Assembly (NCBI GenBank): GCA_027297205.1
Contig: JAPUIH010000383.1
Span: 1 to 40,564, forward strand
From: SAR324 cluster bacterium
Lineage (GTDB): Bacteria > SAR324 > JACQKK01
Length of the DNA: 40,564 bases
Direction: 5' to 3'
Shown: one piece after another, positions 1 to 37,904 of the stretch
How the letters are laid out: each line of letters begins with the position of its first letter
Numbering within the stretch: position 1 is the stretch's first letter
Notes under the pieces: generated by a model
What the model saw: the letters and a program-made list of their open reading frames with translations, nothing else
What the model was told of the DNA's origin: nothing
Database searches by the model: none
Program-made: the position numbers and the translations under genes

Positions 1-1
1 G

Positions 2-1126
2 CGGGATATGGAGGCCGGGGAACGGGCGGGGTTGGGTACGCGGCTGGACCGGCTCTTGCTGACCCCGGAGAGAATCGAGAGCATCCGCGCCGCCATTGAC
101 ACCGTGCGCGATCTGCCCGATCCGGTGGGGATGGAAATCGACGCATCGCGGCGGCCCAATGGCATGCAAGTTCGCCGGGTGCGTTGCCCGCTGGGTGTGG
201 TGGGAATTATCTACGAGGCGCGGCCCAACGTTACTGTAGATGCCTCGGTGATTTGCCTGAAAACCGGTAACGCGGTCGTGCTGAAGGGTGGCTCGGACGC
301 TATCGAGTCGAACAGAGCCATCACTGAAGCGATTCGCCGCGGCCTGGAGCGCGCGGGTCTGCCCTCTGCCGCCGTGCAGTTGTTGGATTCCACGGAGCGG
401 GCGGTGACGGGTGCGTTTTTGCAAATGCGGGGCCTGATCGACGTCATTATACCCCGCGGCAGCCTGGAGCTGATCCGCTTCACTCAGGACAATGCCAAGG
501 TTCCGGTTATCGAAACGGGCGCCTCGGTGGTGCATGCTTATGTGGATGAGGAAGTGGACGTCAACAAGGCCGTGGATTTGATCGTGAACGCGAAGACCCG
601 GCGCGTTTCCATCTGCGGGGCCCTGGACACGCTGCTGCTCCACAGTTCCATCCTGGAGGAGGTGGGGGTTCCTCTCTCCCGGCGACTGGCCGAGTGCGAC
701 CCGCCCGTTGAAGTACGGGCGGATGAGCGGGCCTATCCTGTCTTTGCGGACGCCATGGACGCGGAATACCTGAAACCTTTGGATGCACTCCAGGATTTCG
801 ATACGGAATATCTGGACTACAAAATGGCCGTGGGAACCGTGGATTCCATGGAAGAAGCTTTGGCCCATATCGAGGCCCATTCCCTCAAGCATACGGAGGC
901 CATTTACACCACCAACTCCGAAAAAGCCGAGCGGTTCATGCGCAGCGTGGATGCGGCCTGTGTGATGCACAACGTTTCAACGCAGTTCGTGGATGGCGCG
1001 GAGTTCGGCCTCGGTGCGGAAATCGGAATCAGCACCCAGAAACTGCATGTGCGAGGGCCTTTTGCCCTGGAAGGCTTGACAGGAATGAAATGGGAAATCA
1101 GGGGAGATGGCCAGACCCGGCCGTGA
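2..1126 (+). CDS. proA: gamma-glutamyl phosphate reductase, 5' end lies outside the window
   Basis: The translation carries ProA hallmarks: PLGVVGIIYEARPNVTVDASVICLKTGNAVVLKGGS, IVNAKTRR and STQKLHVRGP. The frame is open back to the window edge, and compared with E. coli ProA about 50 N-terminal residues are missing. Confidence 0.92.
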   Translation, partial: RDMEAGERAGLGTRLDRLLLTPERIESIRAAIDTVRDLPDPVGMEIDASRRPNGMQVRRVRCPLGVVGIIYEARPNVTVDASVICLKTGNAVVLKGGSDAIESNRAITEAIRRGLERAGLPSAAVQLLDSTERAVTGAFLQMRGLIDVIIPRGSLELIRFTQDNAKVPVIETGASVVHAYVDEEVDVNKAVDLIVNAKTRRVSICGALDTLLLHSSILEEVGVPLSRRLAECDPPVEVRADERAYPVFADAMDAEYLKPLDALQDFDTEYLDYKMAVGTVDSMEEALAHIEAHSLKHTEAIYTTNSEKAERFMRSVDAACVMHNVSTQFVDGAEFGLGAEIGISTQKLHVRGPFALEGLTGMKWEIRGDGQTRP

Positions 1127-1249
1127 TTCCATCATAGAAGGAAAATTCGGGTTGACTGACCCCTCACGGCGGCGGAGCGGAGTTCCGTAGCAATACATAG
1201 CGCCGCTCTCCGCGCGGGTAGGTTCCTGGTCCGCCGCCGATAATACGCC

Positions 1250-4200
1250 ATGCTGGAAATTGACTACAGCCTATTTCCACTCTCCGAGGAGGAGCACGAG
1301 CAGATTTCTGCCCGGGCGGAAAGCCTTGCGCGCCGTGGAAAGGCGCCGCCGCTCTCGCCTGCCTCCTACGGCAGGGTGGTGGTTATCAATCCATACGAGG
1401 GGCACACGCTTCACCACGTTCCCGACGATTTGCGCAGGCCGCTCCGCCGGGCCATGCTGCCGGTCTATAAGGCAAGCAAGGCGCTCACCGGCGGCCAGCT
1501 CGTAAAGGACATTCTTGAATCGACCGAGGAGCAGGTTTATCAGGTCGTTTTTGAGCTGTACTCCAAATTTCCCCACGCATTGTCATTTCTGCGCGAGATT
1601 TCGCGCGTCAAGAAAAAGTATCCTCAGTGCCGGCTGCTCATGCACGGGGAGATGGTGCGTTTTCAGGAGTTGCTCAAGGAGATCCTCAGCGAGAACGGTG
1701 CCAGTTGCGATCTGCTATTCGATCATTTCGAAGGTGCGATATCCCTGCGCAGTGTAGACCAGATTGAAAACGTGCTGGCCGAGTTGCCCCGCTATCCCAC
1801 TGTTTCCAAACCTTTTTTCTCGCATTTGCACATCAGTCAGGGAGACAAGGGGCAGAACTACAGCTTTGAGGAATTGCGGCACTTGTACCGCCAATTCGGC
1901 GTAGGCCACATCGAGGAGTTGGACATCTCCGGAAAGCTCCGGCAGAAGCTAATCATCCTGGACATACCCTTGTCCGCCATCAAGTTTCTGCGCATTGCGC
2001 CTGGGCGTGGCGACGGTATCTCCGCCATTAATCTGGACGGCCGGAAGGTTCTTCCCTCCGAGATCGCGGCGATGGGGCTGCTGGACAAGGATATTCCCAT
2101 CAGCTACGTCAAATCGGTGTATCGCAAGACCCAGGGAAAGGCAGAAGAGCAGATTTTGCTGGATCGCGTGCGCGCGCTCCGGATCAACTGCATAGAGGGG
2201 CATGTCTCGTTCTTATGGAAACCCACTGCGAGGTATATCCCGCTCTATGAAGTCAAGGGCATGCGCGTGCAGCTGGGGAAATCCAGCGCGGGCAATGGCG
2301 GGGAGGCCGTCCTCAATCCGCCGCCGGACAATGAAGTGCTGACTATCGAAAATGCAGTGATCACCGAGCAGGGACAACCGAGGTTTGGTGATATCCGCGC
2401 AGAAATCCGGCAGCGATTCCTAGAGAATGTATTTCAAGAGAATCTGGAGCGGCAGGTCAAGTTGCAGCGCTATGTTTCCAGCCTGAAGATCGCGTGCCTG
2501 GGGCCCATGGCCGCACAAACCATTCGGCTGCTGCGTCCCTATGGATTGGGCCAGTTTATTCCTCAGGAATCTCTGTACTACCTATGCGATTCCGTCGAGC
2601 AAATACCGGACTATTATCGCTCCGACGAAAGGGTGGAGCGCCTCTACGACGAGATTGTTGGGAATATCAAGGATTTGTTCGGGTTCGCGGATTCGGGAGA
2701 GATACAACCTGACCTGATCAATCACCGGCTGCCGGTCATTCAGGAATGGGCGCGGGGCGAGGTCCCTCTCGCCAGAGAAGTAACCGCGGAGCAACTGGAC
2801 GTCATCTATAAGGAAATGAAAATCTATCTGTCCTTCGTGGAAAACGAATTCCGCAGAATTAAAGCGAATGACGAGACGGATAAGGCAGTGTTCGGAACGG
2901 TGGAGCGGTGCCAGGCAACCTTGCTGCAGGTTGGGCAATTGGCCAATCTGATAGGTGGCCGGTATGGAAAGCTGCCGGACCGCCAGTCATTCCCGGATTT
3001 TGTATTTTTCAGTTCCGACAAGGATACCCTGGAAAACCGCCGATCGTATTATCTGCCCGGCCTTGCGTTTTCCGGCGTGTTTGGCGGAGACGAGATCCAG
3101 GAAATGTTTCGCTCAAACGATTTTGAATTCAGCGTGTTTCTCGAAGAACAACTGGCCCTGGCCGACTACGTCAAGTCGCAGGACTATGATGGCCAGTACG
3201 AGGCGGGTTTTTACGGCCATTACTTCGAGGGCAAGGCGGCCGAGGCCGAGAAGGAGCTTGAGAAGTTCCAGCAAACCGCGGAAAGCGTGAAGGACCCCTC
3301 GACCGATCAGTACCGGGAAGAGGTGGAACGGATGGCCGAGCACCATCGCGCCGAAGTGGAGGCCTATCGCAAGGACCGGGAGCGGCAGGTCGAAATACTG
3401 AATAGGCGGGAGTCCAACTATTTTGCGGCCTTGGGCGCGGTGAACGCTTATCTGGGTGACGTGGAATTCTCCTCGGAGCAGCCGGAATCGGGGGAAGACT
3501 ACATCCGTGCCCTGGATCAGCAACTAATTGATAAGTCCAAGGAACTGCTTGGTGAATTCAAAGAACTGGTCAGAATCAGTGCGGAAAGCACAAATTTGCT
3601 CGTGCAAGAGAAAAAGGAATCGCTCACTGCTTACCTGCTGGCCTTTTCGAAGGCGCAGAAGGCGCTCTACTCAAACATGAAGGCGGATTATGGAGTTGTA
3701 TTGGAAGAACTCTACCGGGCCGGTCTTCCGGAAATGTTGGACAAGCTGACCATCATTGCCCGCATATCCGATGATGAACTGGAAGCTGCCGAGAGTAATC
3801 TGCGCAGGCGCACAAATGCACTCAAATCGGAAATGACCGAAATCGCGGATAAAGTGAACCGCAACGTCAAGAAGAACCAGCAGACCATGGTGGCCATTCG
3901 GGAGGCTACGCGTCGGCTGGTGGCTTCCATTTCGAGCCCCGTGGAGGAGAAATTAAGCGAGGACGATCCCGCGGCGGTGGTAGCAAAACTGAAGGAGCGG
4001 CTCGAATTTGTCAAACGGGAAACCTTGAAAATTATCGCCGCTGCGGAGGCCAGCTACGAGACGGTGCAGGGGATTAAATCTCAACAGCGCAGCAGGTGCG
4101 AAAAGACCGTGGCCCTGCATATCGGCGATAACGAGCAGGCCATGATCGAAGCCCGCAAGGGAGGCTCACGCCTGGAGAGATTTATGGCGAAGAAGGTGGA

Positions 4201-5254
4201 GAAGCCGCTCCTGCCTGCGCTGGCTTTCGGGGACCGCAATTCGGCCGGCGGTTTATCGGAACAGGCGAGAATTGAAATTGCCGCGTGGCGCGAGGAAGGG
4301 GATATGCTGCGCGAATTTAGCGGGCGGGCGCTGAACTTGGAGGACATCGGCAAGGAACTGGAAACCTATCAGGAGTTTGAGAAAGTGTCGCGCGGCTTCC
4401 GGCGCGCGGTGCGGGAAAAGACCGTTACCCAGCAGGCAACGGCCAGGATCAACGAGCGCCTGGAGCAATTGGAACAGGAAAGGGAAAACATCGACCAGTT
4501 CGTGCAAGAGTGTATGCTGCCAGCCCATGCCAACTATGCGGAGCGGGTGCATATTCCCAACTTGCGCAAGCGAATCGCCTATTTCCGGCAAACCCTCACA
4601 TTCGTGCAGGCGTTGCAGGGGATATCCTTCTCTGACTTGCAGCGGAAATTTTTGGACCGGGCCATTTTCAGGCGCTTTTATGCCACCCAGTTCCGCACGG
4701 GCGCCCATTTTGGTCTGAATTCCGAATTGCCCATCTTCTCCAGACTGAGCAATATTACCGACGCGTTGTCGCTGTTTCACAGAAACCTGCTCACGACCCT
4801 GAGGGGATTTGGATACGACTCCAATGAGTTGACGCTGACCAGGCTTCCCGCGGAGCGGCCCGCCGGCGTCATACAATTCATTGAACAGCAAAAGCAGGCT
4901 TCGCCCGAACAGCGGCTGACTTATCTCATCCTCCCAGGCACCTTATCGCTTTCCCAAGCCCTCGAAATCATCCACCACAAGGAGGACTTGTACAACGGCC
5001 TGCCTCAGTTGGTGCTCATCTACGTCAGCAAATTCGACGCGGCCCTGCTCCACGAGAATCCAATCTTGCGCGAGCGCTATTTTGACGCGATGAAGCATAA
5101 CATCATCGTCAATATCGACGACGAGCACGTGATTGACAATCCAAAGACCATCGCCGATTTCCTGATCGAGCAAACCCTGGGCTGTTGCCATGACATCAAC
5201 GAGGATATGGCAACATCCATGGATATCGATAAAGCGCGAGGCGGCGTGGCGTGA
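1250..5254 (+). CDS. very large (1334 aa) hypothetical protein with a coiled-coil-rich central third; no recognisable catalytic motif
   Basis: Uninterrupted 4 kb ORF with normal-looking amino-acid composition. The central part (about nt 3170-4490) is rich in E/K/R/Q/L in a heptad-like pattern. I see no signal peptide, TM segment or P-loop. Its TGA stop overlaps the GTG start of the next gene (GTGA at 5251-5254). Confidence 0.8.
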   Translation: MLEIDYSLFPLSEEEHEQISARAESLARRGKAPPLSPASYGRVVVINPYEGHTLHHVPDDLRRPLRRAMLPVYKASKALTGGQLVKDILESTEEQVYQVVFELYSKFPHALSFLREISRVKKKYPQCRLLMHGEMVRFQELLKEILSENGASCDLLFDHFEGAISLRSVDQIENVLAELPRYPTVSKPFFSHLHISQGDKGQNYSFEELRHLYRQFGVGHIEELDISGKLRQKLIILDIPLSAIKFLRIAPGRGDGISAINLDGRKVLPSEIAAMGLLDKDIPISYVKSVYRKTQGKAEEQILLDRVRALRINCIEGHVSFLWKPTARYIPLYEVKGMRVQLGKSSAGNGGEAVLNPPPDNEVLTIENAVITEQGQPRFGDIRAEIRQRFLENVFQENLERQVKLQRYVSSLKIACLGPMAAQTIRLLRPYGLGQFIPQESLYYLCDSVEQIPDYYRSDERVERLYDEIVGNIKDLFGFADSGEIQPDLINHRLPVIQEWARGEVPLAREVTAEQLDVIYKEMKIYLSFVENEFRRIKANDETDKAVFGTVERCQATLLQVGQLANLIGGRYGKLPDRQSFPDFVFFSSDKDTLENRRSYYLPGLAFSGVFGGDEIQEMFRSNDFEFSVFLEEQLALADYVKSQDYDGQYEAGFYGHYFEGKAAEAEKELEKFQQTAESVKDPSTDQYREEVERMAEHHRAEVEAYRKDRERQVEILNRRESNYFAALGAVNAYLGDVEFSSEQPESGEDYIRALDQQLIDKSKELLGEFKELVRISAESTNLLVQEKKESLTAYLLAFSKAQKALYSNMKADYGVVLEELYRAGLPEMLDKLTIIARISDDELEAAESNLRRRTNALKSEMTEIADKVNRNVKKNQQTMVAIREATRRLVASISSPVEEKLSEDDPAAVVAKLKERLEFVKRETLKIIAAAEASYETVQGIKSQQRSRCEKTVALHIGDNEQAMIEARKGGSRLERFMAKKVEKPLLPALAFGDRNSAGGLSEQARIEIAAWREEGDMLREFSGRALNLEDIGKELETYQEFEKVSRGFRRAVREKTVTQQATARINERLEQLEQERENIDQFVQECMLPAHANYAERVHIPNLRKRIAYFRQTLTFVQALQGISFSDLQRKFLDRAIFRRFYATQFRTGAHFGLNSELPIFSRLSNITDALSLFHRNLLTTLRGFGYDSNELTLTRLPAERPAGVIQFIEQQKQASPEQRLTYLILPGTLSLSQALEIIHHKEDLYNGLPQLVLIYVSKFDAALLHENPILRERYFDAMKHNIIVNIDDEHVIDNPKTIADFLIEQTLGCCHDINEDMATSMDIDKARGGVA

Positions 5255-6393
5255 ACGTCCTGCTCAGTTCCTGTGTGCACTGGTGGAATGCCGAAGCGGC
5301 CTATGCGGCAGTGCTCGCGGAGCAGTTGCTCGCCGCGGGCCATCGCGTAACCGTATGGACCCAGGCGGGGACACACAATGCACGGGAATTGGAGCGGCGC
5401 GGGCTGCCCATTGAGACAAGTATCCCCGTGCCCGGGGGAAATCTGTTGGGGTGGCGGAGCACCCTGGCCGGATTGGCGGCCTTGCAGGCACGGCAAGGCA
5501 CAGAAATTGTGAATGTGTTCCGCTCCGCCGAGTTTCCCTTTCACCTTTGGGCGGCGCGCCATGAAAGAGGGCCGCGTGTGGTGCGCACGCGAGGCACCGC
5601 CCGGCCCATCAGGAGCGGCTGGATTAACCGGAAGATGCACCGCGACTGGTGTGGCGGGCTGATCGCATCCTCCGAGGCCGTGCGCAGGCAGATGGGGTCT
5701 GCCCTCGATTTGCCCGAGGAACGGATCCGCACGATTTACTACCCGATCGATCTACCCGATCCTGGGCAACTCACGCGGTGTGAAACAGCCCGACTGGATT
5801 TTCTGGAGGAACTGGGGATACGGGATCCCAGCCTATTGTTGGGAATCGTAGGCCGGCTATACCCGGAGAAGGGCCACGCCCGCCTGCTCGCGGCCTTGGA
5901 AAAAATCGTGCCTGCCTTCCCCAACGTGCTGTTGTTGATCCTCGCGAAATCCGCACCGGGGGAAGATCCTGAACGGCCGGCCCTGGAAAAACAAGTGCGA
6001 GAATTAGGGCTGGAAAATCACGTGCGATTCATTGGGTTCAGGGAGGATATCCGGCAACTGATGAGTTGGTTCGACATTGGTGTAATCCCTTCCCTGGACT
6101 CCGAAGTAAACTGCCGGGTAGCAGTGGAATTATTCTCGGTGGGCACGCCCGTAGTGGCGTTTCCCACCGGCGCTTTGCCGGAGGTGGTGGAACATGAATT
6201 GAGCGGGCTCGTAACCGCCACCCACAGCGAGGAAGACTTGAGCGAAGCGTTGATGCGCCTCGGCGCAGATGCCGATCTGCGCAAGCGCCTTGGACAGAGT
6301 GCCCGCGTCCAGGCGGAGCGGCGCTTTTCCCCCAAGGGCTTTCTGGAGGATACCTTGCAGGTGTTCGAAGCTGCGTTGCAGGGAACACCATAA
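5251..6393 (+). CDS. glycosyltransferase, GT4 (GT-B fold) family
   Basis: The C-terminal half is typical of GT4: GRLYPEKGHARLL, HVRFIGFREDI, PSLDSEVNCRVAVELFSVGTPVVAFPTGALPEVVEHELSGLV. The GTG start overlaps the upstream stop. Confidence 0.85.
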   Translation: MNVLLSSCVHWWNAEAAYAAVLAEQLLAAGHRVTVWTQAGTHNARELERRGLPIETSIPVPGGNLLGWRSTLAGLAALQARQGTEIVNVFRSAEFPFHLWAARHERGPRVVRTRGTARPIRSGWINRKMHRDWCGGLIASSEAVRRQMGSALDLPEERIRTIYYPIDLPDPGQLTRCETARLDFLEELGIRDPSLLLGIVGRLYPEKGHARLLAALEKIVPAFPNVLLLILAKSAPGEDPERPALEKQVRELGLENHVRFIGFREDIRQLMSWFDIGVIPSLDSEVNCRVAVELFSVGTPVVAFPTGALPEVVEHELSGLVTATHSEEDLSEALMRLGADADLRKRLGQSARVQAERRFSPKGFLEDTLQVFEAALQGTP

Positions 6394-6477
6394 CCGGATC
6401 GATGCGGCGCGGGGATTGCAGGTAGTTTTGAGGATGAGATGTGCCCATGAGATTACGCGCGGGAGATATCAACCGGG

Positions 6478-7383
6478 ATGAGCATGACTGCCACTAGAAA
6501 ATATCCGGACGGTAGGACCAGCGTCGTGGGAAGGCGGTGCATGCTGCCACTGCTGACCGCTGCTTGCCTGCTGCTCCTTGCCGGCGAGAGTCTGGCGCAA
6601 CTTAGGGATGAGTCCACCATTTCCACGGAGGGAACCCAGTTCGTCAAGCCGGAACCGCCGCCCCGGCCCGCACCGCCCGTACCTCCTGCCCGGCCCCGTA
6701 CCGCCGCCCCACGCGCTCCGGAACCTCCTGTGGTCAAGCGCCCTCCGCGCCGCGCCGCGCCGCCCCCGCGCTATCCCTCGGTGGTATTTTTGCTCGACAC
6801 TTCGGATTCCATGCTGAACAAAGTTCCAGGCAAGGGAACCACTCGGCTGGACGAGGCCAAATCCGCTTTGAGCCGCGTGGTGCAAAGCATGTCCCGGGTC
6901 ACGAGAATGCAGTTGTGGACTTTCAACACGCGCAGGAAGCCGGTAACCATCGGTGGCGCGCCTCCCGGCAGTTTTATCGCCGTGGGGCGGCCGGGTCTGC
7001 GCGAGCAGCTCGCCCGCAAAATTCAGGGCATCCGCACCGCCGGCGGCACCAACCTCTATCAGGCCATCATCCGTACCCTGGATATTTTCGGAGCCCCCGC
7101 CGATCAGCCGCTTTATCGCTCGGGCCAGCGCTTTCCAGTGCTGGTGGTGATCTCCGATGGCGAAGACGGCGGCAAGACCGGGCACACACTGGAATCCGTG
7201 CTGGCCGCCCGGCGGCGTTATCCCCTGGTGACCATCAACACCATCGGATTTCACATCTCCGGTGATGAAAAGTCGTACCAGCGATTGTGCCGCATCAGCA
7301 CCAACCCCCAGGGATGTGCTACGGCGGACAATCAACAGCAGTTGCAAAAAATTCTGGAGAGCTTCTACCAGCCGCGCGGATAA
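6478..7383 (+). CDS. exported von Willebrand factor A (vWA) domain protein with a proline-rich linker
   Basis: The N-terminal hydrophobic stretch LPLLTAACLLLLAGESLAQ looks like a signal peptide. It is followed by a Pro/Arg/Ala-rich linker, a MIDAS-type motif VVFLLDTSDSM, then GGTNLYQAI and VLVVISDGEDG. Confidence 0.85.
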   Translation: MSMTATRKYPDGRTSVVGRRCMLPLLTAACLLLLAGESLAQLRDESTISTEGTQFVKPEPPPRPAPPVPPARPRTAAPRAPEPPVVKRPPRRAAPPPRYPSVVFLLDTSDSMLNKVPGKGTTRLDEAKSALSRVVQSMSRVTRMQLWTFNTRRKPVTIGGAPPGSFIAVGRPGLREQLARKIQGIRTAGGTNLYQAIIRTLDIFGAPADQPLYRSGQRFPVLVVISDGEDGGKTGHTLESVLAARRRYPLVTINTIGFHISGDEKSYQRLCRISTNPQGCATADNQQQLQKILESFYQPRG

Positions 7384-7428
7384 GGCGGCTGGGTGTGAAG
7401 TAATAGGGGTTGCGGGCGGGCCGGGGGC

Positions 7429-8004
7429 TTAGGACCGATCCAGCAGTTGCTGAATCAACTCATCAACAGCGTCGGCACGTCCGGTGCCGGCGTGCATTTC
7501 CCCGTTGATACGGCGCACGATGTTTCCCTGCTTGTCCACGAGGTAAAAGGCGGGCCAATAGGAATTGTCCAGGGCGTTCCAGTACGCATAGTCGTTGTCC
7601 ATCATGACCGGATGCTTGATTTTGTAGCGTTTGACCGCCGCTTCCACTCGGCTGCGCGCCTTTTCGAAACTAAATTCCGGCGTGTGGATACCAATTACCT
7701 GAAGACCCTTACTCGCATATTTGTCCTCGATTCCCTGGACCCAGGGGAAGCTGCGAATGCAGTTAATTCACACGCTGGTCCAGATTTCAAGCAACACCAC
7801 CTTGCCCCTCAGATCCGATTTCTTGAGGGGCGCGGAGTTGATCCAGAATTCCGCGGAGGAAGTGGTGAACTCCGGCATCGTCCCGGCCGCCTGCGCCTGA
7901 TTGGTGCGAAAGGACGGACCCCACAATAATGCTCCCGCCGCCAGCAGCATCAACCCGGCGGCAATCCAGAATCTTGGCATTGTAATGATTGAACTCTCCC
8001 TCAT
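7429..8004 (-). CDS. TlpA/ResA/DipZ-type thioredoxin-fold redoxin with an in-frame TGA at the first Cys of CxxC (candidate selenoprotein, UxxC)
   Basis: ORFs 7768..8004 and 7429..7647 share one frame (576 nt in total). The only interruption is the TGA at 7768-7770. Read-through gives GKVVLLEIWTSV-U-INCIRSFPWVQGIEDKYASKGLQVIGIHTPEFSFEK...YWPAFYLVDKQGNIV. There is a GGAG ribosome-binding site 9 nt before the ATG at 8004, and the N-terminus has a hydrophobic anchor or signal segment. Confidence 0.8.
7731..7770 (-). promoter_or_regulatory. candidate bacterial SECIS element downstream of the redoxin UGA
   Basis: The mRNA reads UGA AUUAA CUGC-AUUC-GCAG C UUCCC(C)UG-GGUC-CAGGGAA. The second hairpin (7731-7749) has 7 bp, a single-nucleotide 5'-side bulge and a GGUC apical tetraloop. 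The loop starts 29 nt after the U of the UGA. Confidence 0.5.
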
Positions 8005-8135
8005 AATGGACGCTCCACGCTTCTCAGACTGTGAGTATGGGCAGTGGCCCCTGATTGCGGCAAGAGAAAAGGACCGCCCAGCTTAGAGTATGGAAGAATC
8101 CATTGGGTTCGCGTCAATCGCTGGAAGTTTCATGC

Positions 8136-10154
8136 CTATCCTGCTTCCACTTCCCACGCCCTGGTTTGCCCCTCTGGCTTGCCGGTGTATTCCCGGAGAA
8201 AGGCATCAAGCGCTTCCCGCTGCATGCCCAGGGCCTCCCCCAACAGCAGCGCCGCCTCGACGGCGTACAGGGCGCTTGCGCCCACCAACTCCCCGCCGAG
8301 CATGTAACTGTCCTTTTCCCCCTTGAATTGATAGCCGCCCGGCACTTGCCGCAGGCGCGACCCGGAGAAGGTGAGGGGCGGTGGATCCCGTTCGGCGGCC
8401 AGGGGCACCAACAACCCGTCATCCCCGCTCAGCAACAGCCGGCCAGGGGGCACAGCACGGCACAGCCCGGCAACCTCTTCCTGGATAACCGCAAGTTCTC
8501 CCGGATCGTCCTCACTATCGAGTGTCAGGTTGGTCACGATGGCCCAGTCCGGCTTGGCCGTTCTCAACAGTTCCGCCATGTCGCCCCGCTGCCGTGCTCC
8601 AAATTCCAGCACAAGCATTTCAAGCGGCTCACGGGAAAACAGGGCGCGCAAGGTTGCGGCGGTGAGGGTGCCCAGCACGGCCTTCCAGTCACGCGGATCG
8701 ATTTCCAGGCCCAGCACCGCCAAGGGCAGGCCGATTTCCGTATTGTAGGAGCGGGGATTGGCCCGTACGGCGTAGCGGCGTTCCAGCAAGCCGGTAAGGG
8801 TGCGCTTGAACACGGTCTTTCCGCGATTGCCCGCGATGGCAACCACCCGCGGCTTGCGCCGCCACAGATAGAACCGCGCCAGCAGGCTCAGATACCCTAT
8901 GGCCAAGCCGCGCGTACGCCGGCGAAACACTCCTCTCCTCGGCCGCGGAGCGGCCTGGGCGGCGGGAAAGGGATAGACCGCGCCGCTGCCATCCCTCCCG
9001 AAATAGCCTCTCATGCGCCGAAATGCTTCCTCGATGTCCCCTTCCTCCCGGCCGAAAGACATGCGCAGATGGGACTCTCCGGTTGGACCGAAGGCGCTGC
9101 CAGGTACCACCGCCACCCGCGCCCGCTCCAGCATGTCCAGGGCCAGGCGGCGCGAGTCCGCGCTGAAAGGTACCGGGTCCTTAACCCGGGGGAATACGAA
9201 ATACGCCCCATTGGGTTTCTGATAATCGAAGATATGCGACAGCTCGTCCAGATGCTGCAGGGTCAAGTCCCGCCGACGCCGGTAGGCCGCCTTGAACTCC
9301 GCAATTGCTTCTCCGCCATAGGCCAGGGCCGCCACCGCCGCGTGTTGGGAGATCACCGGCGCACAGGTCACCAGCGCGTCGTGCACCTTTAAAATTTCCG
9401 CCACGGCCTCCCGTGATGAGTGCAGGTAACCCACCCGCCATCCGGTCATGGCATAGGCTTTGGATAGGGAGTAAATCCGCACCACCCGCTCCCGGAAAGC
9501 CTCCACCTGGGCCGGGCTGAAATAGGGCTCCTCGTTGAAAATGAAATCCTTGTACACCTCGTCGGTGATGATCATCAGGTCGTGGGTTTCGGCCAGTTCC
9601 ATCATGCGCAGCGACTGCGCCCGGGAGTAGATGGTGCCCGTCGGATTGTTGGGATTGCAGTAGAAAATCGCGGCGGTGCGCGGCGTGATCAGGCGGGCGA
9701 TAGATTCCACATCCAGGTCGAAATTCCGCTCCTCGTCCAAAGCGGCGAACTTGGGCACGCAGCCCGCCATGCGGATCACCTGCTGGTAGGAGGCATAACA
9801 GGGAGAGGGCAGAATCACCTCGTCGCCGGGCTCGGTGAGGGCGAGCAAGGTAGCGGAAATGGCCTCGATGGAACCCGCGGTGACCAGAATCTCGCCCTCC
9901 GGGTCGTAGCGCATGCCCTCTCCCAGCAGGGATTCCGCCACCAGTTCCCGCAGCTCGGGCAGGCCGGGGGCCAGGGAATATCTGGCGGTCTCCCCCTGGT
10001 CCAACTTTTCCTTTACATACTCCTTGATGACCTCCGGCGTATCAAAGCTGGGGATGCCCTGGGCGAGGGAAACCGCGCCGGGCACCCGTGCCGCGGCGAG
10101 TTCGATTTCCTTGATGGGAGACAGCTCGATCTGGCTGGATCGGCGAAAGCGCAT
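8136..10154 (-). CDS. fusion protein: class I/II PLP-dependent aminotransferase (N-terminal, about 390 aa) joined to a MurF-like Mur ligase central domain (C-terminal, about 250 aa)
   Basis: The N-terminal part has NPNNPTG and the PLP-lysine motif YSLSKAYAMTGWRVGY. The C-terminal part has the P-loop-like VVAIAGNRGKT, then NTEIGLPLAVLGL, LVLEFGARQRGDM and PDWAIVTNL. It is one uninterrupted 672-codon ORF. Confidence 0.8.
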   Translation of the reverse strand: MRFRRSSQIELSPIKEIELAAARVPGAVSLAQGIPSFDTPEVIKEYVKEKLDQGETARYSLAPGLPELRELVAESLLGEGMRYDPEGEILVTAGSIEAISATLLALTEPGDEVILPSPCYASYQQVIRMAGCVPKFAALDEERNFDLDVESIARLITPRTAAIFYCNPNNPTGTIYSRAQSLRMMELAETHDLMIITDEVYKDFIFNEEPYFSPAQVEAFRERVVRIYSLSKAYAMTGWRVGYLHSSREAVAEILKVHDALVTCAPVISQHAAVAALAYGGEAIAEFKAAYRRRRDLTLQHLDELSHIFDYQKPNGAYFVFPRVKDPVPFSADSRRLALDMLERARVAVVPGSAFGPTGESHLRMSFGREEGDIEEAFRRMRGYFGRDGSGAVYPFPAAQAAPRPRRGVFRRRTRGLAIGYLSLLARFYLWRRKPRVVAIAGNRGKTVFKRTLTGLLERRYAVRANPRSYNTEIGLPLAVLGLEIDPRDWKAVLGTLTAATLRALFSREPLEMLVLEFGARQRGDMAELLRTAKPDWAIVTNLTLDSEDDPGELAVIQEEVAGLCRAVPPGRLLLSGDDGLLVPLAAERDPPPLTFSGSRLRQVPGGYQFKGEKDSYMLGGELVGASALYAVEAALLLGEALGMQREALDAFLREYTGKPEGQTRAWEVEAG

Positions 10155-10305
10155 GATGGCTTGACGGTGATTGCGCAGGCTGCGGCGTTGGTTCCGGCTT
10201 CGCCACGGTACTGCGTTTGCAACGAAATTGAATGCGGCGCGTGGCGCGTATTCCTATTTCTAATCCCTGACACCCCAAATGGAAAGCCCGAATGACCACG
10301 CATCC

Positions 10306-10866
10306 TTAGGCCCTGTCCGTGGAATTATCCGCGTGCGGCCGGGCCAGGTCGTGCAGATTGAAGTAATTGACCATGAAATGGAGCAATAAGGCAGGCCAGA
10401 GGGAGCCAAACCAATCCGTCAGCAGACCCATCGACACCCCCAGTACCAGGGCGAATCCGGTCCAGGGGAGAAGCCACCGGCGGTAAGGAAAATGGAAGAA
10501 GCCGAACAGCAATGCCGTGGGCCACAGCCCCAGCCGGGGGTGCAGCACTCCCCGGAACAGGATCTCCTCGCCGAAGGCGGACAGCAGGGACAACAACAGA
10601 ATCTCTCGGGAGGTCAGCGTGCCCAGCACCGTCCGGAACTCTTCATGCAGGCGCATCCCCCAGCCGGTATGCCGTGAGCTCCAGCGGCTCAGCGCCACCA
10701 CCCCAGCGGACCCGCCGCAGGCCACGGTAAGGCCGAAGGCCAGGCGCGTCCAATCATCTACTCTCAGCAGCCCCGGCGCACGCAGGAAAAACAAACCCGC
10801 CAGCATGGGCGTATAAAAAATGGCGGCAATCAGCAACAATCGGTGCGGAAAAGGCCCGTCGCTCAT
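10306..10866 (-). CDS. CPBP family intramembrane glutamic endopeptidase (CAAX protease-like)
   Basis: Multi-pass hydrophobic protein carrying the motifs EEILFRGVLHPRL, FGFFHF and LLLHFMVNY. Confidence 0.8.
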   Translation of the reverse strand: MSDGPFPHRLLLIAAIFYTPMLAGLFFLRAPGLLRVDDWTRLAFGLTVACGGSAGVVALSRWSSRHTGWGMRLHEEFRTVLGTLTSREILLLSLLSAFGEEILFRGVLHPRLGLWPTALLFGFFHFPYRRWLLPWTGFALVLGVSMGLLTDWFGSLWPALLLHFMVNYFNLHDLARPHADNSTDRA

Positions 10867-11142
10867 AATTCACGCGTGATAAAATTGCCGGGTTCTTGCA
10901 TGGCTGGCTGATCAGATTGGGGCGCATGGGTGCCCGCAACATTCCGCCAGGCGGATAATAATGGGTCAATCATGCCTATGGGTTGTTCTTGATTCGCTCC
11001 AGGGCGCTTGATAAATTGAAGGTTGGGCGGAATCCTGGAACTGTTCCCGCCGGGACCTGAAGCTATGGATCTTCCAGGGCAGGGCGGCGGCATCATGAGC
11101 GGCGGAGAACTTGTATTTCGAGCACAGCAAAACCGCGGTGAC

Positions 11143-12048
11143 ATGAAAGAAACCACTGGAAACAAGCGACCTGGCCGTAATGATCCCTGCTGGTGCGACA
11201 GCGGACGTAAGTACAAGAAGTGTCACATGATGGCCGACAAGCGGGAAAAACCACCTGCTTGGGGTATGGGCCATGTGGGCGACACCAGCGGCCACCACGT
11301 CAATACAAGCCTAATCAAATCCAAAGCGCAAATTGAGGGCATCCGTAAGGCGGGACGCCTGAACAAGCGCATCCTGGACATGCTCGAAGAGCGAATTCGG
11401 GAGGGAGTGACCACCATCCAGATCGACCAATGGGTACACGAGTTAACCGTCGCCAATAATGGCGTGCCCGCCCCGCTCAATTACAAGCAGTTTCCCAAAT
11501 CGGTCTGCACCTCCGTGAACGAGGTGGTCTGCCATGGCATTCCGGAAAAGCGGAAGTTGCTGTCCGGTGACATCATGAATGTGGACGTAACCTCTATTCT
11601 CCAGGGTTACTACGGCGACTCGAGCCGCATGTTCATGATCGGCGAAGTCAGTCCCGAAGCGCGGAAGCTGGTGCAGGTGACAAAGGAATGCCTTGAAATC
11701 GGGATTGCCCAGGTCAAGCCGGGAGGGTTCGTGGGCGATATCGGGAGCGCAATTCAGGATTACGCGGAGCAGCGTGGGTACTCCGTCGTGCGGGACTTTG
11801 TCGGGCACGGCACCGGGCTGCGTTTTCACGAGGATCCCCAGATTCCCCACTTCGGCCAAAAAGGCAAGGGACACCCTTTTCTTCCGGGTATGGTCTTTAC
11901 CATCGAGCCGATGATCAACGCCGGTCACTATGCCACTACTATTCTCAAGGATGGCTGGACGGCGGTGACCCGGGACGGCTCCCTTTCCGCCCAATGGGAG
12001 CATACCTTGGCCGTGACCAGCGACGGCGTGGACGTGCTCACCGCGTAG
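11143..12048 (+). CDS. map: type I methionine aminopeptidase with an N-terminal SEC-C zinc-binding motif
   Basis: GRNDPCWCDSGRKYKKCH is followed by the MetAP core: VCHGIP, NVDVT, GYYGDSSRMF, FVGHGTGLRFHE, FTIEPM and QWEHT. The start is uncertain. The ATG at 11143 is chosen because SEC-C motifs usually sit close to the N-terminus. In-frame alternatives are the ATGs at 11095 and 11065 and a TTG at 11023. Confidence 0.85.
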   Translation: MKETTGNKRPGRNDPCWCDSGRKYKKCHMMADKREKPPAWGMGHVGDTSGHHVNTSLIKSKAQIEGIRKAGRLNKRILDMLEERIREGVTTIQIDQWVHELTVANNGVPAPLNYKQFPKSVCTSVNEVVCHGIPEKRKLLSGDIMNVDVTSILQGYYGDSSRMFMIGEVSPEARKLVQVTKECLEIGIAQVKPGGFVGDIGSAIQDYAEQRGYSVVRDFVGHGTGLRFHEDPQIPHFGQKGKGHPFLPGMVFTIEPMINAGHYATTILKDGWTAVTRDGSLSAQWEHTLAVTSDGVDVLTA

Positions 12049-12207
12049 GAAACCGCTCTTCTTCCCAAGCGGTGGCCGGCTCTCTGCACCGCCGAGGACT
12101 AAATTCCAAAGCAATTCTTGCTGGAACATTCCAGGCAATATTTACGGGTTCCCCGCGCTTGTCAGCCCCAAGACTGGCCTCTGGGGCGAGGCCATGGGAA
12201 GCCGCCC

Positions 12208-31549: not shown

Positions 31550-32032
31550 ATGGTGGGATTCAGCAATTCCGTAATAAAAGAAGTGGATGAGTTGTTCAGC
31601 CGCTACCCGGTAAAGGTGCATGCCCTGCTGCCTCTATTGCATCTGGCGCAACGCGTTAACGATGGTTGGCTTCCCTCGGGATGGGATGCCTACGTGGCCG
31701 ATTTGTGCGATACAACGGTAAATCATGTGCGGGGTGTGATCACTTTCTACAACATGTTCCACACCAAACCGGTGGGCAGACACCACATCATGGTGTGTAC
31801 CTGCTTACCCTGTGGCCTCTGCGATGGGGACAAGCTGCTCACTCATCTGGAAGAGCGGCTGGGCCTGCATCCGGGCCAGACCAGCGCGGACGGCCTGTTC
31901 AGCCTGGAGGAAGCACAATGCCTGGCGGCCTGCGACAAGGCCCCACTGATGATGGTCAACGACAAATTGCACGAGAACCTGACGCTGGAGCAGGTCGACA
32001 ATTGGATTGAGCAGGCGCGGAAGAAGAAATAG
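31550..32032 (+). CDS. nuoE: NADH-quinone oxidoreductase subunit E (2Fe-2S)
   Basis: LLPLLHLAQ, VCTCLPCGLCDG and CLAACDKAPLMMVN supply the four Cys ligands, in the NuoE context directly ahead of nuoF. Confidence 0.85.
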   Translation: MVGFSNSVIKEVDELFSRYPVKVHALLPLLHLAQRVNDGWLPSGWDAYVADLCDTTVNHVRGVITFYNMFHTKPVGRHHIMVCTCLPCGLCDGDKLLTHLEERLGLHPGQTSADGLFSLEEAQCLAACDKAPLMMVNDKLHENLTLEQVDNWIEQARKKK

Positions 32033-32082
32033 CCGTGTCCGCCCGTATTTACTAGGGAATTGCAAGGAAAGCCGAATTAGCC

Positions 32083-33336
32083 ATGGTCGAAGAAAAGCAA
32101 ATTCTGACCAAGAACATGCGGGACAGTAAATATTCCGGCGATCTGAAGGCCTATAAAAACGCCGGCGGATTTAATGCCCTGGATACTGTGATCAGGAAGA
32201 TGAAGCCGGAGCAAGTGCTGGAACTCGTCAAGGCCTCGGACCTGCGGGGGCGCGGGGGCGCGGGTTTTCCCACCGGGGTGAAGTGGAGCTTTATGCCCAA
32301 AGACACGGGCAAACCCTCCTACCTGATTTGCAATGCGGATGAGAGCGAGCCGGGTACCTTCAAGGATCACCTGATCATGATGCGCGACCCCCACCTGTTC
32401 CTGGAGGGGATGATCATCGGCTGCTACACCATAGACTGCAATACCGGCTACATTTACATCCGGGGCGAATCGCAAACGGCTATCGCCATCATGGAAAAGG
32501 CCATCGGCGAGCTGTACAAGGACAAGCTGCTCGGACAGAACGTGATGGGCAGCAAGTACAGCCTGGACCTGTATGTACATCCCGGAGCGGGCGCCTACAT
32601 CTGCGGCGAAGAGACCGCGCTGCTGGATTCCCTGGAGGGCAAGCGCGGGCAGCCGCGCATCAAGCCCCCCTTTCCCGCGGTGTCCGGCTACAACAGCTGC
32701 CCCACCAGCGTTAACAACGTGGAGACCCTGGCCTGCCTGCCCTACATTATTAATGAGGGGCCCGAGGCCTGGAAGGCCATGGGCACGCCCAACAATTCCG
32801 GCACGCACATGGTCTGTATCAGCGGGCACGTGGAAAAGCCGGGGGTGTACGAGGTGGAAATGGGCGTTTCTCTGCTGGAGATGATCAACGATCTGGCCGG
32901 CGGGGTGCGCAATGGCAAGAAACTGAAAGCAGTCATTCCCGGCGGGGCTTCCGCTAACATACTGAAAGCGGATGAGGCGGATGTGCCCTACGAGTTCGAT
33001 GCGCTGATGAAGGCGGGAACCATGATGGGCTCGGCGGCGGTAATAGTATTCGATGAGGACACCGACATGGTGGAAGTGGCCAGCCGCACCATCCGCTTCT
33101 TCAACCACGAGTCCTGCGGGCAATGCACACCGTGCCGGGAAGGCACGTTCTGGCTGAAAAACATGATCCGGGATTTCCTGGACAACGCGGGAGATGAGGC
33201 CAAGATGCAGCGGGTGGAGCGCGTGTCCGCCAATCTGATCGGCACCACCATCTGTCCCTTCGGCGATGCCACCGGGGGCCCCATGGGCACATTCATCGGG
33301 AAGTTTCCCGAGGACTTCAGAAAACATTTTGCATAG
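32083..33336 (+). CDS. nuoF: NADH-quinone oxidoreductase subunit F (FMN, NADH binding, 4Fe-4S)
   Basis: RGRGGAGFPTGVKWSF, NADESEPGTFKD, YICGEETALLDSLEG and ESCGQCTPCREG. Confidence 0.95.
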   Translation: MVEEKQILTKNMRDSKYSGDLKAYKNAGGFNALDTVIRKMKPEQVLELVKASDLRGRGGAGFPTGVKWSFMPKDTGKPSYLICNADESEPGTFKDHLIMMRDPHLFLEGMIIGCYTIDCNTGYIYIRGESQTAIAIMEKAIGELYKDKLLGQNVMGSKYSLDLYVHPGAGAYICGEETALLDSLEGKRGQPRIKPPFPAVSGYNSCPTSVNNVETLACLPYIINEGPEAWKAMGTPNNSGTHMVCISGHVEKPGVYEVEMGVSLLEMINDLAGGVRNGKKLKAVIPGGASANILKADEADVPYEFDALMKAGTMMGSAAVIVFDEDTDMVEVASRTIRFFNHESCGQCTPCREGTFWLKNMIRDFLDNAGDEAKMQRVERVSANLIGTTICPFGDATGGPMGTFIGKFPEDFRKHFA

Positions 33337-33344
33337 CAGCGACC

Positions 33345-34955
33345 ATGCCGACCTTCTACCTGGACAATGAACCAATCGAATTCGAGCCGGGCGAAAACGT
33401 GCTCGCGGCGGCCCTGCGCCACCACCGGGAGATTCCCCATTACTGCTATCATCCCGGATTGCAGGTGACGGCCCAATGCCGCATGTGCCTGGTGGATGTG
33501 GTGGACATGGGCAACGGGCGGGGCATGCCCAAGCTGCAGACCTCCTGCTCCACGGCCGCCGCGGAAGGCATGAAGGTGGACTCGCAATCGGAAAAAGTGA
33601 AGCACGGCCAGATCCTGGTCAATGAATTTCTGCTGATTAACCATCCCCTGGACTGCCCCATCTGCGACCAGGCCGGAGAGTGCGATCTGCAGGATTTCTC
33701 CTTCAAGTACGGCAGTGGCCAGTCCGAGATGGAATACGAGAAGCGGGTCTATGGCTTGCGCGACGTGGGCACATTCATCGTGCTGGAGCGCAACCGCTGT
33801 ATCCACTGCTCGCGCTGTGAGCGCTTTACCCGCGACGTGACGGGCACCCACGATTTCGGTATGTTCCTGCGCACCCATGAATTGACCTTCGACACCTTCG
33901 AGGATCATCAGATCACCGACAAATTCCAGGGCAACCTGGCGGACATTTGCCCAGTGGGCTGCATCATGAACCGGGACTGGCGGTTCAAAAAGCGGGCATG
34001 GAAGTTGAACAAGACCGAGTCCATATGCCCCTCCTGCTCCACCGGATGCAACATCACCGTGGAGCACCATAAAAATCGTGTGTTCCGGCTGAAGCCACGG
34101 GAAAACCAGGAGGTCAACCGCTGGTGGATGTGCGACGAGGGGCGGATTGGCTTCAAGCAACTCAATGACCGCGTGACGCGTCTTGCCGAGCCCCAGGCCA
34201 GGGTGAAGGGCCAGTTGCGCTCGGTGGTCTGGGAGACCGCCTATGAGGCGATCGTTACCCGCCTGAAGGAAATCGGTGCCACTGGGGCTCAGGCGTTCGG
34301 CATTATTGATACCCACGCCACCAACGAGGAAATGCACCTCTTCAAGAAGCTGATGCAGGAAGGTCTGGGGGCCGAGACGGTCTATTTCCCGCTCAGAAGG
34401 GGAGAACAACAGGTGCAGCCGCCGCGCGAGGACATGGACCCTTTCATTTATACGCTCATCCAGACCGACAAGAGCCCGAACACCCGCGGAGCTCTGGCGC
34501 AGGGATTGACGGGAGACGAGGACGACAAGCGCCTGCTGGCCGCCTTGCAAGCAGAGCCCAAAGTGGCTGTAATCTGTGGTGCGCCCCTGGAGGACAACGC
34601 CGCGGTGTGCAAGGCGGCGGCCAAGGCGGAACTGGTCATTCAGCTGGGAACATTCCGGGGACCATGGACGGAGGTGGCCGATGTGGTGCTGCCCGGCTAT
34701 ACCTACGCCGAGAAGCAGGGAAGCTTCACCAACAAGGCCGACCGGGTGCAGCGTATTAACGCGGGCATCCGCCCTGCTGAAGGCGCACGGGATCAGGTGA
34801 GAATTCTACAAGAGTTATTGGCGGCCCTGGGCAAGCCCCAGAAAACCGTCGACGCCCCCGACGTGTTCGACGCCATGGCCAGCGAACAGGGTGCGTTCAA
34901 AGGCATGTCCTGGGACAAACTGGGCAGCCTCGGCGGGGTATTGCCCGGCAAATAG
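33345..34955 (+). CDS. nuoG: NADH-quinone oxidoreductase subunit G, short form (536 aa)
   Basis: N-terminal 2Fe-2S and 4Fe-4S motifs: CRMC...C, HPLDCPICDQAGECDLQD, RCIHCSRCERF, CPVGC and CPSCSTGC. The C-terminal molybdopterin-like part is much shorter than in E. coli NuoG. Confidence 0.88.
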   Translation: MPTFYLDNEPIEFEPGENVLAAALRHHREIPHYCYHPGLQVTAQCRMCLVDVVDMGNGRGMPKLQTSCSTAAAEGMKVDSQSEKVKHGQILVNEFLLINHPLDCPICDQAGECDLQDFSFKYGSGQSEMEYEKRVYGLRDVGTFIVLERNRCIHCSRCERFTRDVTGTHDFGMFLRTHELTFDTFEDHQITDKFQGNLADICPVGCIMNRDWRFKKRAWKLNKTESICPSCSTGCNITVEHHKNRVFRLKPRENQEVNRWWMCDEGRIGFKQLNDRVTRLAEPQARVKGQLRSVVWETAYEAIVTRLKEIGATGAQAFGIIDTHATNEEMHLFKKLMQEGLGAETVYFPLRRGEQQVQPPREDMDPFIYTLIQTDKSPNTRGALAQGLTGDEDDKRLLAALQAEPKVAVICGAPLEDNAAVCKAAAKAELVIQLGTFRGPWTEVADVVLPGYTYAEKQGSFTNKADRVQRINAGIRPAEGARDQVRILQELLAALGKPQKTVDAPDVFDAMASEQGAFKGMSWDKLGSLGGVLPGK

Positions 34956-35011
34956 GTGCAAAAGTCTGATGCAAACCGTTTCCGGCGGGGCCGGGAACCT
35001 GGAGCAAGCTG

Positions 35012-35551
35012 ATGCTGATCGCATTTTACATCGTTGCGGCTTTGGCCGTGGCCAGCGCATTCAATATATTGATTCTGCGCTCTCCGGTGTATTGCGCCCT
35101 TTCCCTGGTGGGTTGCTTCTTCTTACTGGGCATCATCTTTATCCTGCTCAACAACGAGTTCGTGGCCGTGGTGCAGGTATTGATATATGCCGGCGCCATC
35201 ATGGTGCTGTTCTTATTCGTAATCATGTTGCTCAATCTGCGCCCGGACAGCTCGCCCCGCAGCCTCAAATTCGGCATCGCCAAGATTTTGGGTATTGGCC
35301 TGACCGTGGGTATTTTGGCCCAGTTGATCGGTGTGTTCGGCAGCTCCGCGGCCAAGCTGGGGCCGATGGGTGAATATTCCGCCCAGCGGGTGACCGAGGA
35401 GGGATCCCTGGAAATTGTGGCGGAACTGATGCTGACCGAATACGTGCTGCCCTTCGAAATAATTTCCATCCTGTTGATGGTTTCCATCATGGGCGCGGTG
35501 GTGCTGGCCAAAAAGCGGCCGCCACCGGAAGAAGAGGAATCCCAGCCGTGA
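35012..35551 (+). CDS. nuoJ: NADH-quinone oxidoreductase subunit J
   Basis: Hydrophobic protein of 179 aa containing VQVLIYAGAIMVLFLFVIMLL, located directly upstream of nuoK. Confidence 0.88.
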   Translation: MLIAFYIVAALAVASAFNILILRSPVYCALSLVGCFFLLGIIFILLNNEFVAVVQVLIYAGAIMVLFLFVIMLLNLRPDSSPRSLKFGIAKILGIGLTVGILAQLIGVFGSSAAKLGPMGEYSAQRVTEEGSLEIVAELMLTEYVLPFEIISILLMVSIMGAVVLAKKRPPPEEEESQP

Positions 35552-35850
35552 TACCGGTCAGCCACATCCTGGGCCTGAGCGCTATTTTGTTCGCCATCGG
35601 CGTGGGCGGGGTGATGATCCGCCGCAATGCCATTGTGGTGTTCATGTGCGTGGAGTTGATGCTGAATGCCGTTAATGTGGCCTTTGTGGGCTTTGCCTAT
35701 GGCATGCAGTCCATGGTGGGCGTGATGTTTGTGTTCTTCGTGTTGGTCGTGGCGGCGGCGGAAGCCGTGGTGGGCCTGGCCATCATGCTGGCGATTTTCC
35801 GCAGCAGGGAATCCCTCGATTTGGAGGAGTTCAACCTGTTGCGTTGGTAG
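35548..35850 (+). CDS. nuoK: NADH-quinone oxidoreductase subunit K
   Basis: 100 aa containing MCVELMLNAVN and AAAEAVVGLAI. The GTG start overlaps the nuoJ stop (GTGA). Confidence 0.9.
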   Translation: MIPVSHILGLSAILFAIGVGGVMIRRNAIVVFMCVELMLNAVNVAFVGFAYGMQSMVGVMFVFFVLVVAAAEAVVGLAIMLAIFRSRESLDLEEFNLLRW

Positions 35851-35900
35851 ACCCCCTGTCCTTACACCGTACCGTGGGCGAACCGAATATTTGAGATGAG

Positions 35901-37826: not shown

Positions 37827-37904
37827 AAGTGGCCCCGGCGGCGTTGCCGGGCTGGCGCGGCTGAAAGCGTAATTGCCCGGCGCCGCGCATGCAACAAGCA
37901 ACCT

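Follow-up and report, generated by a model that had tools for sequence, protein, structure and literature searches.

We analysed a 40,564-nt contig of a SAR324 cluster bacterium (JAPUIH010000383.1, assembly GCA_027297205.1; hereafter the window, i.e. the whole stretch at its full length) and within it a minus-strand gene at 7429–8004, in which a TGA codon interrupts the reading frame of a thioredoxin-fold protein. Translation of this segment gave one 191-codon frame with a single internal stop, the TGA at 7770–7768. The two minus-strand open reading frames (ORFs) as which the locus appears, 7768..8004 (78 aa) and 7429..7647, share that frame, just as the preliminary description of this DNA had it. 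The frame opens with ATG (8004–8002), 8 nt downstream of a sequence that reads as a Shine-Dalgarno-like GGAG (8013..8016), and closes with TAA (7431–7429). Taken as a whole (7429..8004), it would be the complete coding sequence of a selenoprotein with selenocysteine (U) at codon 79, an exported redoxin of the TlpA/ResA/DipZ type. The read-through product runs MRESSIITMPRFWIAAGLMLLAAGALLWGPSFRTNQAQAAGTMPEF...LLEIWTSV-U-INCIRSFPWVQGIEDKY...HTPEF...YWPAFYLVDKQG...LLDRS, and its junction, ...LRGKVVLLEIWTSV-U-INCIRSFPWVQGIEDKY..., is identical to the sequence initially reported around the TGA. Codon 79 (7768..7770) and the TGC codon of Cys82, the predicted resolving cysteine (7759..7761), form the two ends of the motif U-I-N-C.

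The read-through protein scored 53.6 bits with the Pfam family Redoxin (PF08534) over residues 42–177, against a gathering cut-off of 26.6. The best match among solved structures was the C-terminal domain of Mycobacterium tuberculosis DipZ (5cyy/2hyx; E 1e-30, residues 20–189, approx. 170 residues), followed by the thioredoxin-like domains of SOQ1 and NHLRC2 and then by YkuV (E 3e-15) and ResA. Database homologues numbered 1454. In a 36-sequence alignment, all 35 homologues had the first Cys of W-x-x-x-C-x-N-C, an invariant residue, in the column of the TGA; Cys82 was likewise invariant, and the redox centre of the window protein reads W75-T-S-V-U79-I-N-C82. U79 also aligned to the CINC of M. 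tuberculosis DipZ, which has FWAYSCINC. The commonest form of the motif among the genome homologues was FWTYSCINC, in keeping with the WTYSCINC given in the preliminary description, and the alignment bore out the placement of the TGA at the nucleophilic Cys with the resolving Cys retained. The protein is not considered an orthologue of ResA, TlpA, DsbE or StoA, because its NCBIfam scores (67.9 vs. a cut-off of 170 for ResA, NF002854; 33.6 vs. 230, 20 vs. 123 and 37 vs. 210 for the other three) are far below the family cut-offs. The selenocysteine-containing model NF041054 (ResA-like, WAxxUGC) gave 38.4 bits vs. a cut-off of 300, the motif here being W-T-S-V-U-I-N-C, and neither the window protein nor five other homologues with a TGA at this codon (hereafter U-forms) reached the cut-off of any NCBIfam model.

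Gene callers and GenBank split the locus, and the deposited product is a 109-aa 'redoxin family protein' (7429–7758; e.g. MCZ6473679.1; P0001, P0121) that begins MRSFPW at the ATT codon of Ile83, just past the CxxC motif. We regard this ATT start as an artefact that arose because the selenocysteine codon was not recognised. Read literally, the annotation describes two genes, one for a 78-aa secreted peptide and another for the 109-aa protein, and the treatment by gene callers and GenBank is what speaks for it; however, the 109-aa product would start at an ATT within a conserved motif and would have neither a signal peptide nor the first strands of the fold nor the catalytic residue, and what the 78-aa ORF encodes is homologous to full-length redoxins over their N-terminal third. 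Two separate genes are hence barely credible. Public annotation likewise splits or truncates well over a hundred metagenome homologues, which a curated W-T-x-x-U-I-N-C model would fix.

Codons 1–39 (7888..8004, minus strand) encode a predicted Sec-type signal peptide (Sec denoting here the export pathway), with an Arg-containing basic n-region, a 16-residue hydrophobic core (WIAAGLMLLAAGALLW) and A-Q-A / A-G, the A-Q-A standing ahead of the conserved PEF. The Kyte-Doolittle profile had its maximum of 2.18 at residues 13–27 and was hydrophilic afterwards, and homologues possess equivalent leaders with AxA-like ends just ahead of the same PEF. From these features we infer that the signal peptide is cleaved, and export, suggested earlier from the hydrophobic N-terminal segment, is consistent with both the profile and the leaders. 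The accompanying view that export would be unusual for a bacterial selenoprotein did not stand. Selenoproteins of the periplasm include formate dehydrogenase-N of Escherichia coli and the [NiFeSe] hydrogenases. Furthermore, surveys list DsbA-like, DsbG-like, 'thiol:disulfide interchange' and TlpA-family selenoproteins (PMC1794560, PMC13188914). Export is ordinary for this fold and not unusual among selenoproteins.

The C-terminal fragment is also recorded in four further NCBI assemblies named 'SAR324 cluster bacterium'. In the five metagenome-assembled genomes (MAGs) together, the TGA and the hairpin that follows it (described below) are identical, with two single-nucleotide polymorphisms over 660 nt defining two haplotypes. 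Two unrelated ENA assemblies (ERZ23498787 and ERZ25748031) contain short contigs with 95–97% nucleotide identity, in which TGA, reading frame and core of the hairpin are all retained, and the TGA is thus identical across seven independent assemblies of this SAR324 population. Compared with the window, one of the two ENA contigs has 14 synonymous and 4 non-synonymous codon changes, distributed over both halves of the gene; in the other, the replacements lie mostly within the signal peptide. Purifying selection acts on both sides of the TGA. Because the window comes from a metagenome assembly, the TGA might reflect a mistake in sequencing or assembly, the true codon being TGC or TGT; against this stand the identity of the TGA in five separately assembled MAGs of two haplotypes and in the two ENA contigs, as well as its recurrence in diverged relatives, and we consider such an error exceedingly unlikely. 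Nor is UGA generally reassigned: TGA terminates 8 of the 20 confident genes in the window, as had been noted for some of the neighbours, and any recoding would therefore be local. A search of the window for further genes split by TGA turned up pairs of high-GC ORFs, all of them spurious.

Downstream of the UGA the mRNA can form a hairpin resembling a bacterial selenocysteine insertion sequence (SECIS). It starts 18 nt past the TGA and is composed of UUCCCCUG (7749–7742), GGUC (7741–7738) and CAGGGAA (7737–7731), with a core stem in which 7746–7742 pairs with 7737–7733 and with the apical loop GGUC 26 nt past the UGA; the element as a whole, CUUCCCCUG-GGUC-CAGGG-AAUC-GAGG, covers 7725..7750 of the minus strand. 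Its core, CCCUG/GGUC/CAGGG, is present in the minimum free energy (MFE) structure computed with ViennaRNA, and both the start of the hairpin and its GGUC loop agree with the preliminary description. The bacterial SECIS (bSECIS) model, as set out in a 2026 review (PMC13188914), asks for a 3–9-nt loop whose first two positions contain a G with a G or U after it, for no fewer than 4 bp in the upper stem, for a dG not above −7.5 kcal/mol and for a UGA-to-loop distance of 16–37 nt. The window hairpin, with a 4-nt loop (GGUC), five contiguous base pairs plus four more past an internal loop, a spacing of 26 nt and a dG of −8.2 kcal/mol, lies within all four published criteria, for energy marginally.

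A likeness to the SelB-binding apex of the E. coli fdhF SECIS had been proposed, and it holds in part. Each hairpin lies downstream of the UGA within the coding sequence, and the two share the same apical tetraloop, GGUC (the fdhF sequence was verified in 5419 of 5426 E. coli genomes). The position of the bulge, the bulged base and the spacing differ: in fdhF, the loop is 18 nt from the UGA and a U is bulged three pairs below the loop, whereas in the window 26 nt separate the UGA from the loop, five pairs below which there is a bulged C or a C.A mismatch. The stem sequences are unrelated. The fdhF-type SECIS is characterised by G23 and U24 in the GGUC loop, by the bulged U and by 11 nt between the UGA and the minimal hairpin.

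Deeper relatives were found within the SAR324 clade. A search with the C-terminal part only retrieved many fragment proteins of 89–111 aa, the hallmark of further U-forms. One such annotated fragment, on a 230-kb contig of the SAR324 MAG GCA_015231825.1, proved to be a U-form; a second deep relative is located on a 1.72-Mb contig (ERZ26167708 ctg196950; L208, L209) that is probably the near-complete genome of a member of the same clade. Both read ...IWTSV-U-[SI]NCIRSFPWVH..., with roughly 60% identity over the C-terminal part, and their GGUC hairpins have altered, still-pairing stems (CCAUG/CAUGG and CCGUG/CACG.). The presence of TGA and hairpin in relatives of approx. 60% identity implies that the TGA has been kept over a long divergence. 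The 1.72-Mb contig is partly syntenic with positions 1–12100 of the window: a SEC-C/M24 peptidase gene adjoins the split redoxin, and genes for a GT4 glycosyltransferase, an aldehyde dehydrogenase and serine hydroxymethyltransferase are also common to both neighbourhoods.

Beyond SAR324, two scans were made. The first covered GTDB species representatives, was used for homologues only and gave 80 homologous loci among the matches listed; among these, two loci, in an Acidobacteriota MAG and a Vicinamibacteria MAG, had TGA at the same codon. Both are 43–44% identical to the query and carry CCCUG-GGUC-CAGG at the same offset, an element found in none of the 73 scorable Cys-forms. The second scan, of metagenomes, used a pattern blind to the hairpin (TGA-NTN-AAY-TGY, 72 free bases, CAYACNCCNGARTT) and retrieved at least 120 stretches; 119 of those listed are W-T-x-x-U-[IV]-N-C redoxins with both flanking frames intact. 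Altogether, the TGA is conserved in loci L001–L004, L205, L206, L207, L208/L209, L038 and L057 and in at least 119 metagenome loci. As side observations, one U-form (L107:1343–2240) carries ~190 aa past its redoxin domain, a C-terminal addition that recalls the extra domain at the C-terminus of M. tuberculosis DipZ, and some others have long N-terminal in-frame extensions.

A consensus SECIS was detected in 105 of 111 unique U-forms, with the loop 24–28 nt from the UGA in 98, vs. 5 of 73 Cys-forms, one of them at that spacing. The hairpins vary in sequence by subfamily (CCCGC-AGUU-GCGGG, CCCUG-GGU-CAGGG, CCGUG-GGUC-CACGG, CCCUC-GGU-GAGGG and others), and exchanges of the types C-G/G-C and G-C/U-A/C-G leave the five core pairs intact in about 98% of cases. 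In the GGUC subgroup, to which the window belongs, 92.9% of cells were paired, compared with 25–55% when the 3' partner was slid; two pairs change on both sides, and the observed score was reached by none of 500 shuffles. In one compensatory exchange, the window has CAG (Gln) for the CAC (His) of relatives, opposite a Pro codon CCC for CCG. RNAalifold, applied to a codon-registered alignment of all U-forms, returned no consensus structure. We relied on loop-anchored and GGUC-subgroup analyses because the hairpins occupy three registers with loops of 3 or 4 nt, and replaced the global MFE of 60-nt segments with explicit enumeration under the published criteria because competing folds hid many hairpins. 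It should be noted that hairpin energy alone does not separate selenocysteine from Cys forms in GC-rich genes.

These comparisons bear directly on the possibility that the gene is a pseudogene, in which a TGC or TGT of an ordinary CxxC redoxin became TGA by nonsense mutation and left two decaying ORFs. A single transition would suffice for that, every one of the closest full-length homologues in the database is a Cys form, and the machinery for selenocysteine was not seen in this genome. However, no fewer than 130 different homologues, which belong to several phyla, have TGA at the same codon, with both halves always intact and in frame; substitutions between strains are mostly synonymous on either side of it; and the TGA forms, unlike the Cys forms, have a covarying hairpin. 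At the level of the family, the pseudogene reading is effectively refuted, and for the window gene itself we consider it very improbable.

Immediately next to the redoxin gene lie genes for a VWA protein (6478–7383, plus strand) and a 672-aa aminotransferase-domain protein (8136–10154, minus strand), and no gene for CcdA/DsbD, cytochrome c maturation or a copper chaperone was found near it. Around other U-forms, a minority of neighbours were MsrP/MsrQ-type genes (Oxidored_molyb 5, Ferric_reduct 3), some VWA proteins and some two-component systems. In a soil subgroup with the motif FWTYG-U-INC[KQR]NVIPQLR (L093, L111, L181, L123, L200 and L201), the redoxin directly follows genes for an MsrQ/YedZ-like haem membrane protein and the molybdopterin oxidoreductase MsrP; often there is no in-frame stop between msrQ and the redoxin, and in some members the redoxin frame continues from msrQ. 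This linkage suggests a selenium-dependent redoxin attached to periplasmic methionine-sulfoxide repair. The VWA gene of the window is convergent to the redoxin gene, and VWA proteins flank three other U-form loci; this adjacency may be a coincidence.

Several observations weigh against a selenoprotein at this locus. The hairpin satisfies the energy limit only marginally (−8.2 vs. −7.5 kcal/mol), contains the C.A mismatch or bulge and has an unremarkable fold z-score of about −1.2 for its region. The loose bSECIS consensus was also satisfied after 14.9% of the 1099 UGA triplets in the window (4.5% when the spacing was held to 24–28 nt; shuffled sequences, 15%), and for that reason the hairpin alone is weak evidence, not beyond chance. 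No Rfam family matched at the site at gathering or at permissive thresholds, a null result that we do not count against a SECIS. When 139 ORFs beside U-forms were surveyed with Pfam, no universal or conserved redox partner and no CcdA/DsbD came to light. Neither selA, selB, selC nor selD was found within the 40.5-kb window or at the related loci, and tRNA-Sec was not found in the window or in 36 loci. Finally, two incomplete SAR324 single-cell genomes have been listed with an 'orphan' SelD and no SelA or SelB (PMC5029168). During the tRNA searches, a 98-nt feature ~2.5 kb from a U-form (L175:8331–8428, minus strand), called by ARAGORN as 'tRNA-Asp (atc)' with the anticodon at position 39, was suspected to be a mis-called tRNA-Sec; it was dropped, as it had no Rfam tRNA or tRNA-Sec match, and is probably a false positive despite its length and an overlapping TCA.

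Another possible explanation is that the gene is a relic in a lineage that has lost the selenocysteine machinery, UGA79 now terminating translation or being leakily suppressed (e.g. by a Trp- or Cys-tRNA) while the gene disappears. The mismatched, energetically marginal hairpin of the window and the single-cell genomes with SelD and no SelA or SelB are compatible with it. However, three SAR324-clade lineages, mutually ~60% identical, retain the TGA, the hairpin and intact flanking frames, which argues for long-term selection for read-through, and the 'orphan' status of SelD is weak evidence because those single-cell genomes are incomplete. Since the machinery was not seen and the orphan SelD is on record, we leave a small probability to the relic.

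We regard the comparative evidence as decisive. The features that appear to exceed chance are the alignment of the TGA to the invariant catalytic Cys and its recurrence in homologues, to which the agreement of the hairpin with the bSECIS model, the conservation of TGA and hairpin, the covariation of the stem and the ordinary use of TGA as a stop nearby can be added. With a probability of roughly 0.9, the locus is a functional selenoprotein gene in which UGA79 specifies selenocysteine, directed by the SECIS, at the nucleophilic position of a CxxC redoxin; the proposal of a UxxC selenoprotein in the preliminary description is upheld in its core. By the SECIS consensus and its conservation, the hairpin with its GGUC loop 26 nt past UGA79 would recruit SelB.GTP.Sec-tRNA(Sec), and UGA would be decoded as selenocysteine. 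The full-length pre-protein would then be exported via the Sec pathway, and its signal peptide would be cut after A-Q-A. In the periplasm, U79-x-x-C82 could cycle between the selenol/thiol and selenenylsulfide states, reducing disulfides or oxidised residues of envelope proteins, and would presumably regain its reduced state from a membrane electron carrier of the CcdA/DsbD type whose gene lies elsewhere. The role of a periplasmic reductant with a selenenylsulfide cycle is the most likely one; the sole contextual hint to a partner or substrate comes from the soil U-forms adjoining msrPQ.

Two further features of the window were recorded. A 1334-aa ORF (1250–5254, plus strand), annotated as hypothetical, has no Pfam domain at E ≤ 1e-4 and has conserved full-length counterparts in five or more further SAR324 MAGs. 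The complex I cluster at 31550–39482 (plus strand) contains nuoE, nuoF, a short nuoG-like gene of 536 aa, nuoJ (35012–35551), nuoL and nuoM; there is no nuoH or nuoI between the G and J genes and no nuoA–D upstream, where rpe and tkt precede the cluster.

The gene would provide direct sequence evidence for the use of selenocysteine in the abundant deep-ocean SAR324, would revise the earlier listing of these bacteria under 'orphan SelD' and bears on the selenium demand of the dark ocean. A broader proposal, which we put forward tentatively and hold to be somewhat less than an even chance, is that the DipZ-like W-T-x-x-U-[IV]-N-C...HTPEF redoxins form a large uncatalogued selenoprotein family, abundant in metagenomes of soil and sediment (Acidobacteriota and others) and in marine SAR324, and systematically truncated in GenBank because no curated model exists. 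If this is true, finding the family in three SAR324 lineages would mean that selenocysteine is decoded in SAR324 despite that listing, and the msrPQ-linked subset would suggest that one branch of oxidative-damage repair in the envelope depends on selenium. The family is also a natural test set for bacterial SECIS models, with paired selenocysteine and Cys forms and at least four loops (AGUU, GGU, GGUC and GUU) at one fixed position. Our understanding of the selenoprotein mechanism is unchanged by what is mechanistically an ordinary case.

Among known proteins, the C-terminal domain of DipZ (2HYX, 5CYY) shares with the window protein the motifs W-x-x-x-C-I-N-C, HTPEF and YWPA and the extracytoplasmic location, and DipZ is grouped with the related thioredoxin-like domains of SOQ1 from plants (7DJJ) and NHLRC2 from humans (6GC1). 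All three, however, have a nucleophilic Cys and are parts of larger proteins (with a CcdA-like membrane domain in DipZ and NHL repeats in SOQ1 and NHLRC2), whereas the window protein would be a stand-alone form with a signal peptide and selenocysteine. TlpA, ResA, DsbE (CcmG) and YkuV resemble it in fold, in the position of CxxC, in being exported or membrane-anchored and in their role as reductants; unlike them, it has NCBIfam scores below cut-off and no genes for cytochrome c maturation or copper chaperones nearby. Thioredoxin-fold proteins with UxxC are the commonest class of bacterial selenoproteins. Those catalogued include the 'thiol:disulfide interchange protein', the 'Prx-like thiol:disulfide oxidoreductase', the 'Redoxin family protein (PF08534, UxxC)' / 'Prx-like 3' from the GOS (Global Ocean Sampling) data, the 'UGC-containing TlpA family' and NCBIfam NF041054, WAxxUGC (PMC1794560, PMC2398784, PMC13188914). 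In these, as in the window protein, selenocysteine replaces the N-terminal Cys of a thioredoxin-fold envelope oxidoreductase, a bSECIS follows downstream and Cys homologues are many. The examples of 'Prx-like 3' (PF08534) in the part of the GOS supplement consulted read W-U-G-x-C(-Q), whereas the window protein has W-T-S-V-U-I-N-C of the DipZ-like branch, and neither UINC nor HTPEF occurs in that part of the supplement. Among the papers searched, none linked DipZ-type redoxins with selenocysteine. As judged from its sequence and that of its relatives, the gene encodes a UxxC selenoprotein that is genuine and belongs with the TlpA/ResA/DipZ redoxins, a well-known class that includes exported members. 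The W-T-x-x-U-I-N-C subfamily has no curated NCBIfam model, and we place it in this known class, possibly as an uncatalogued subfamily.

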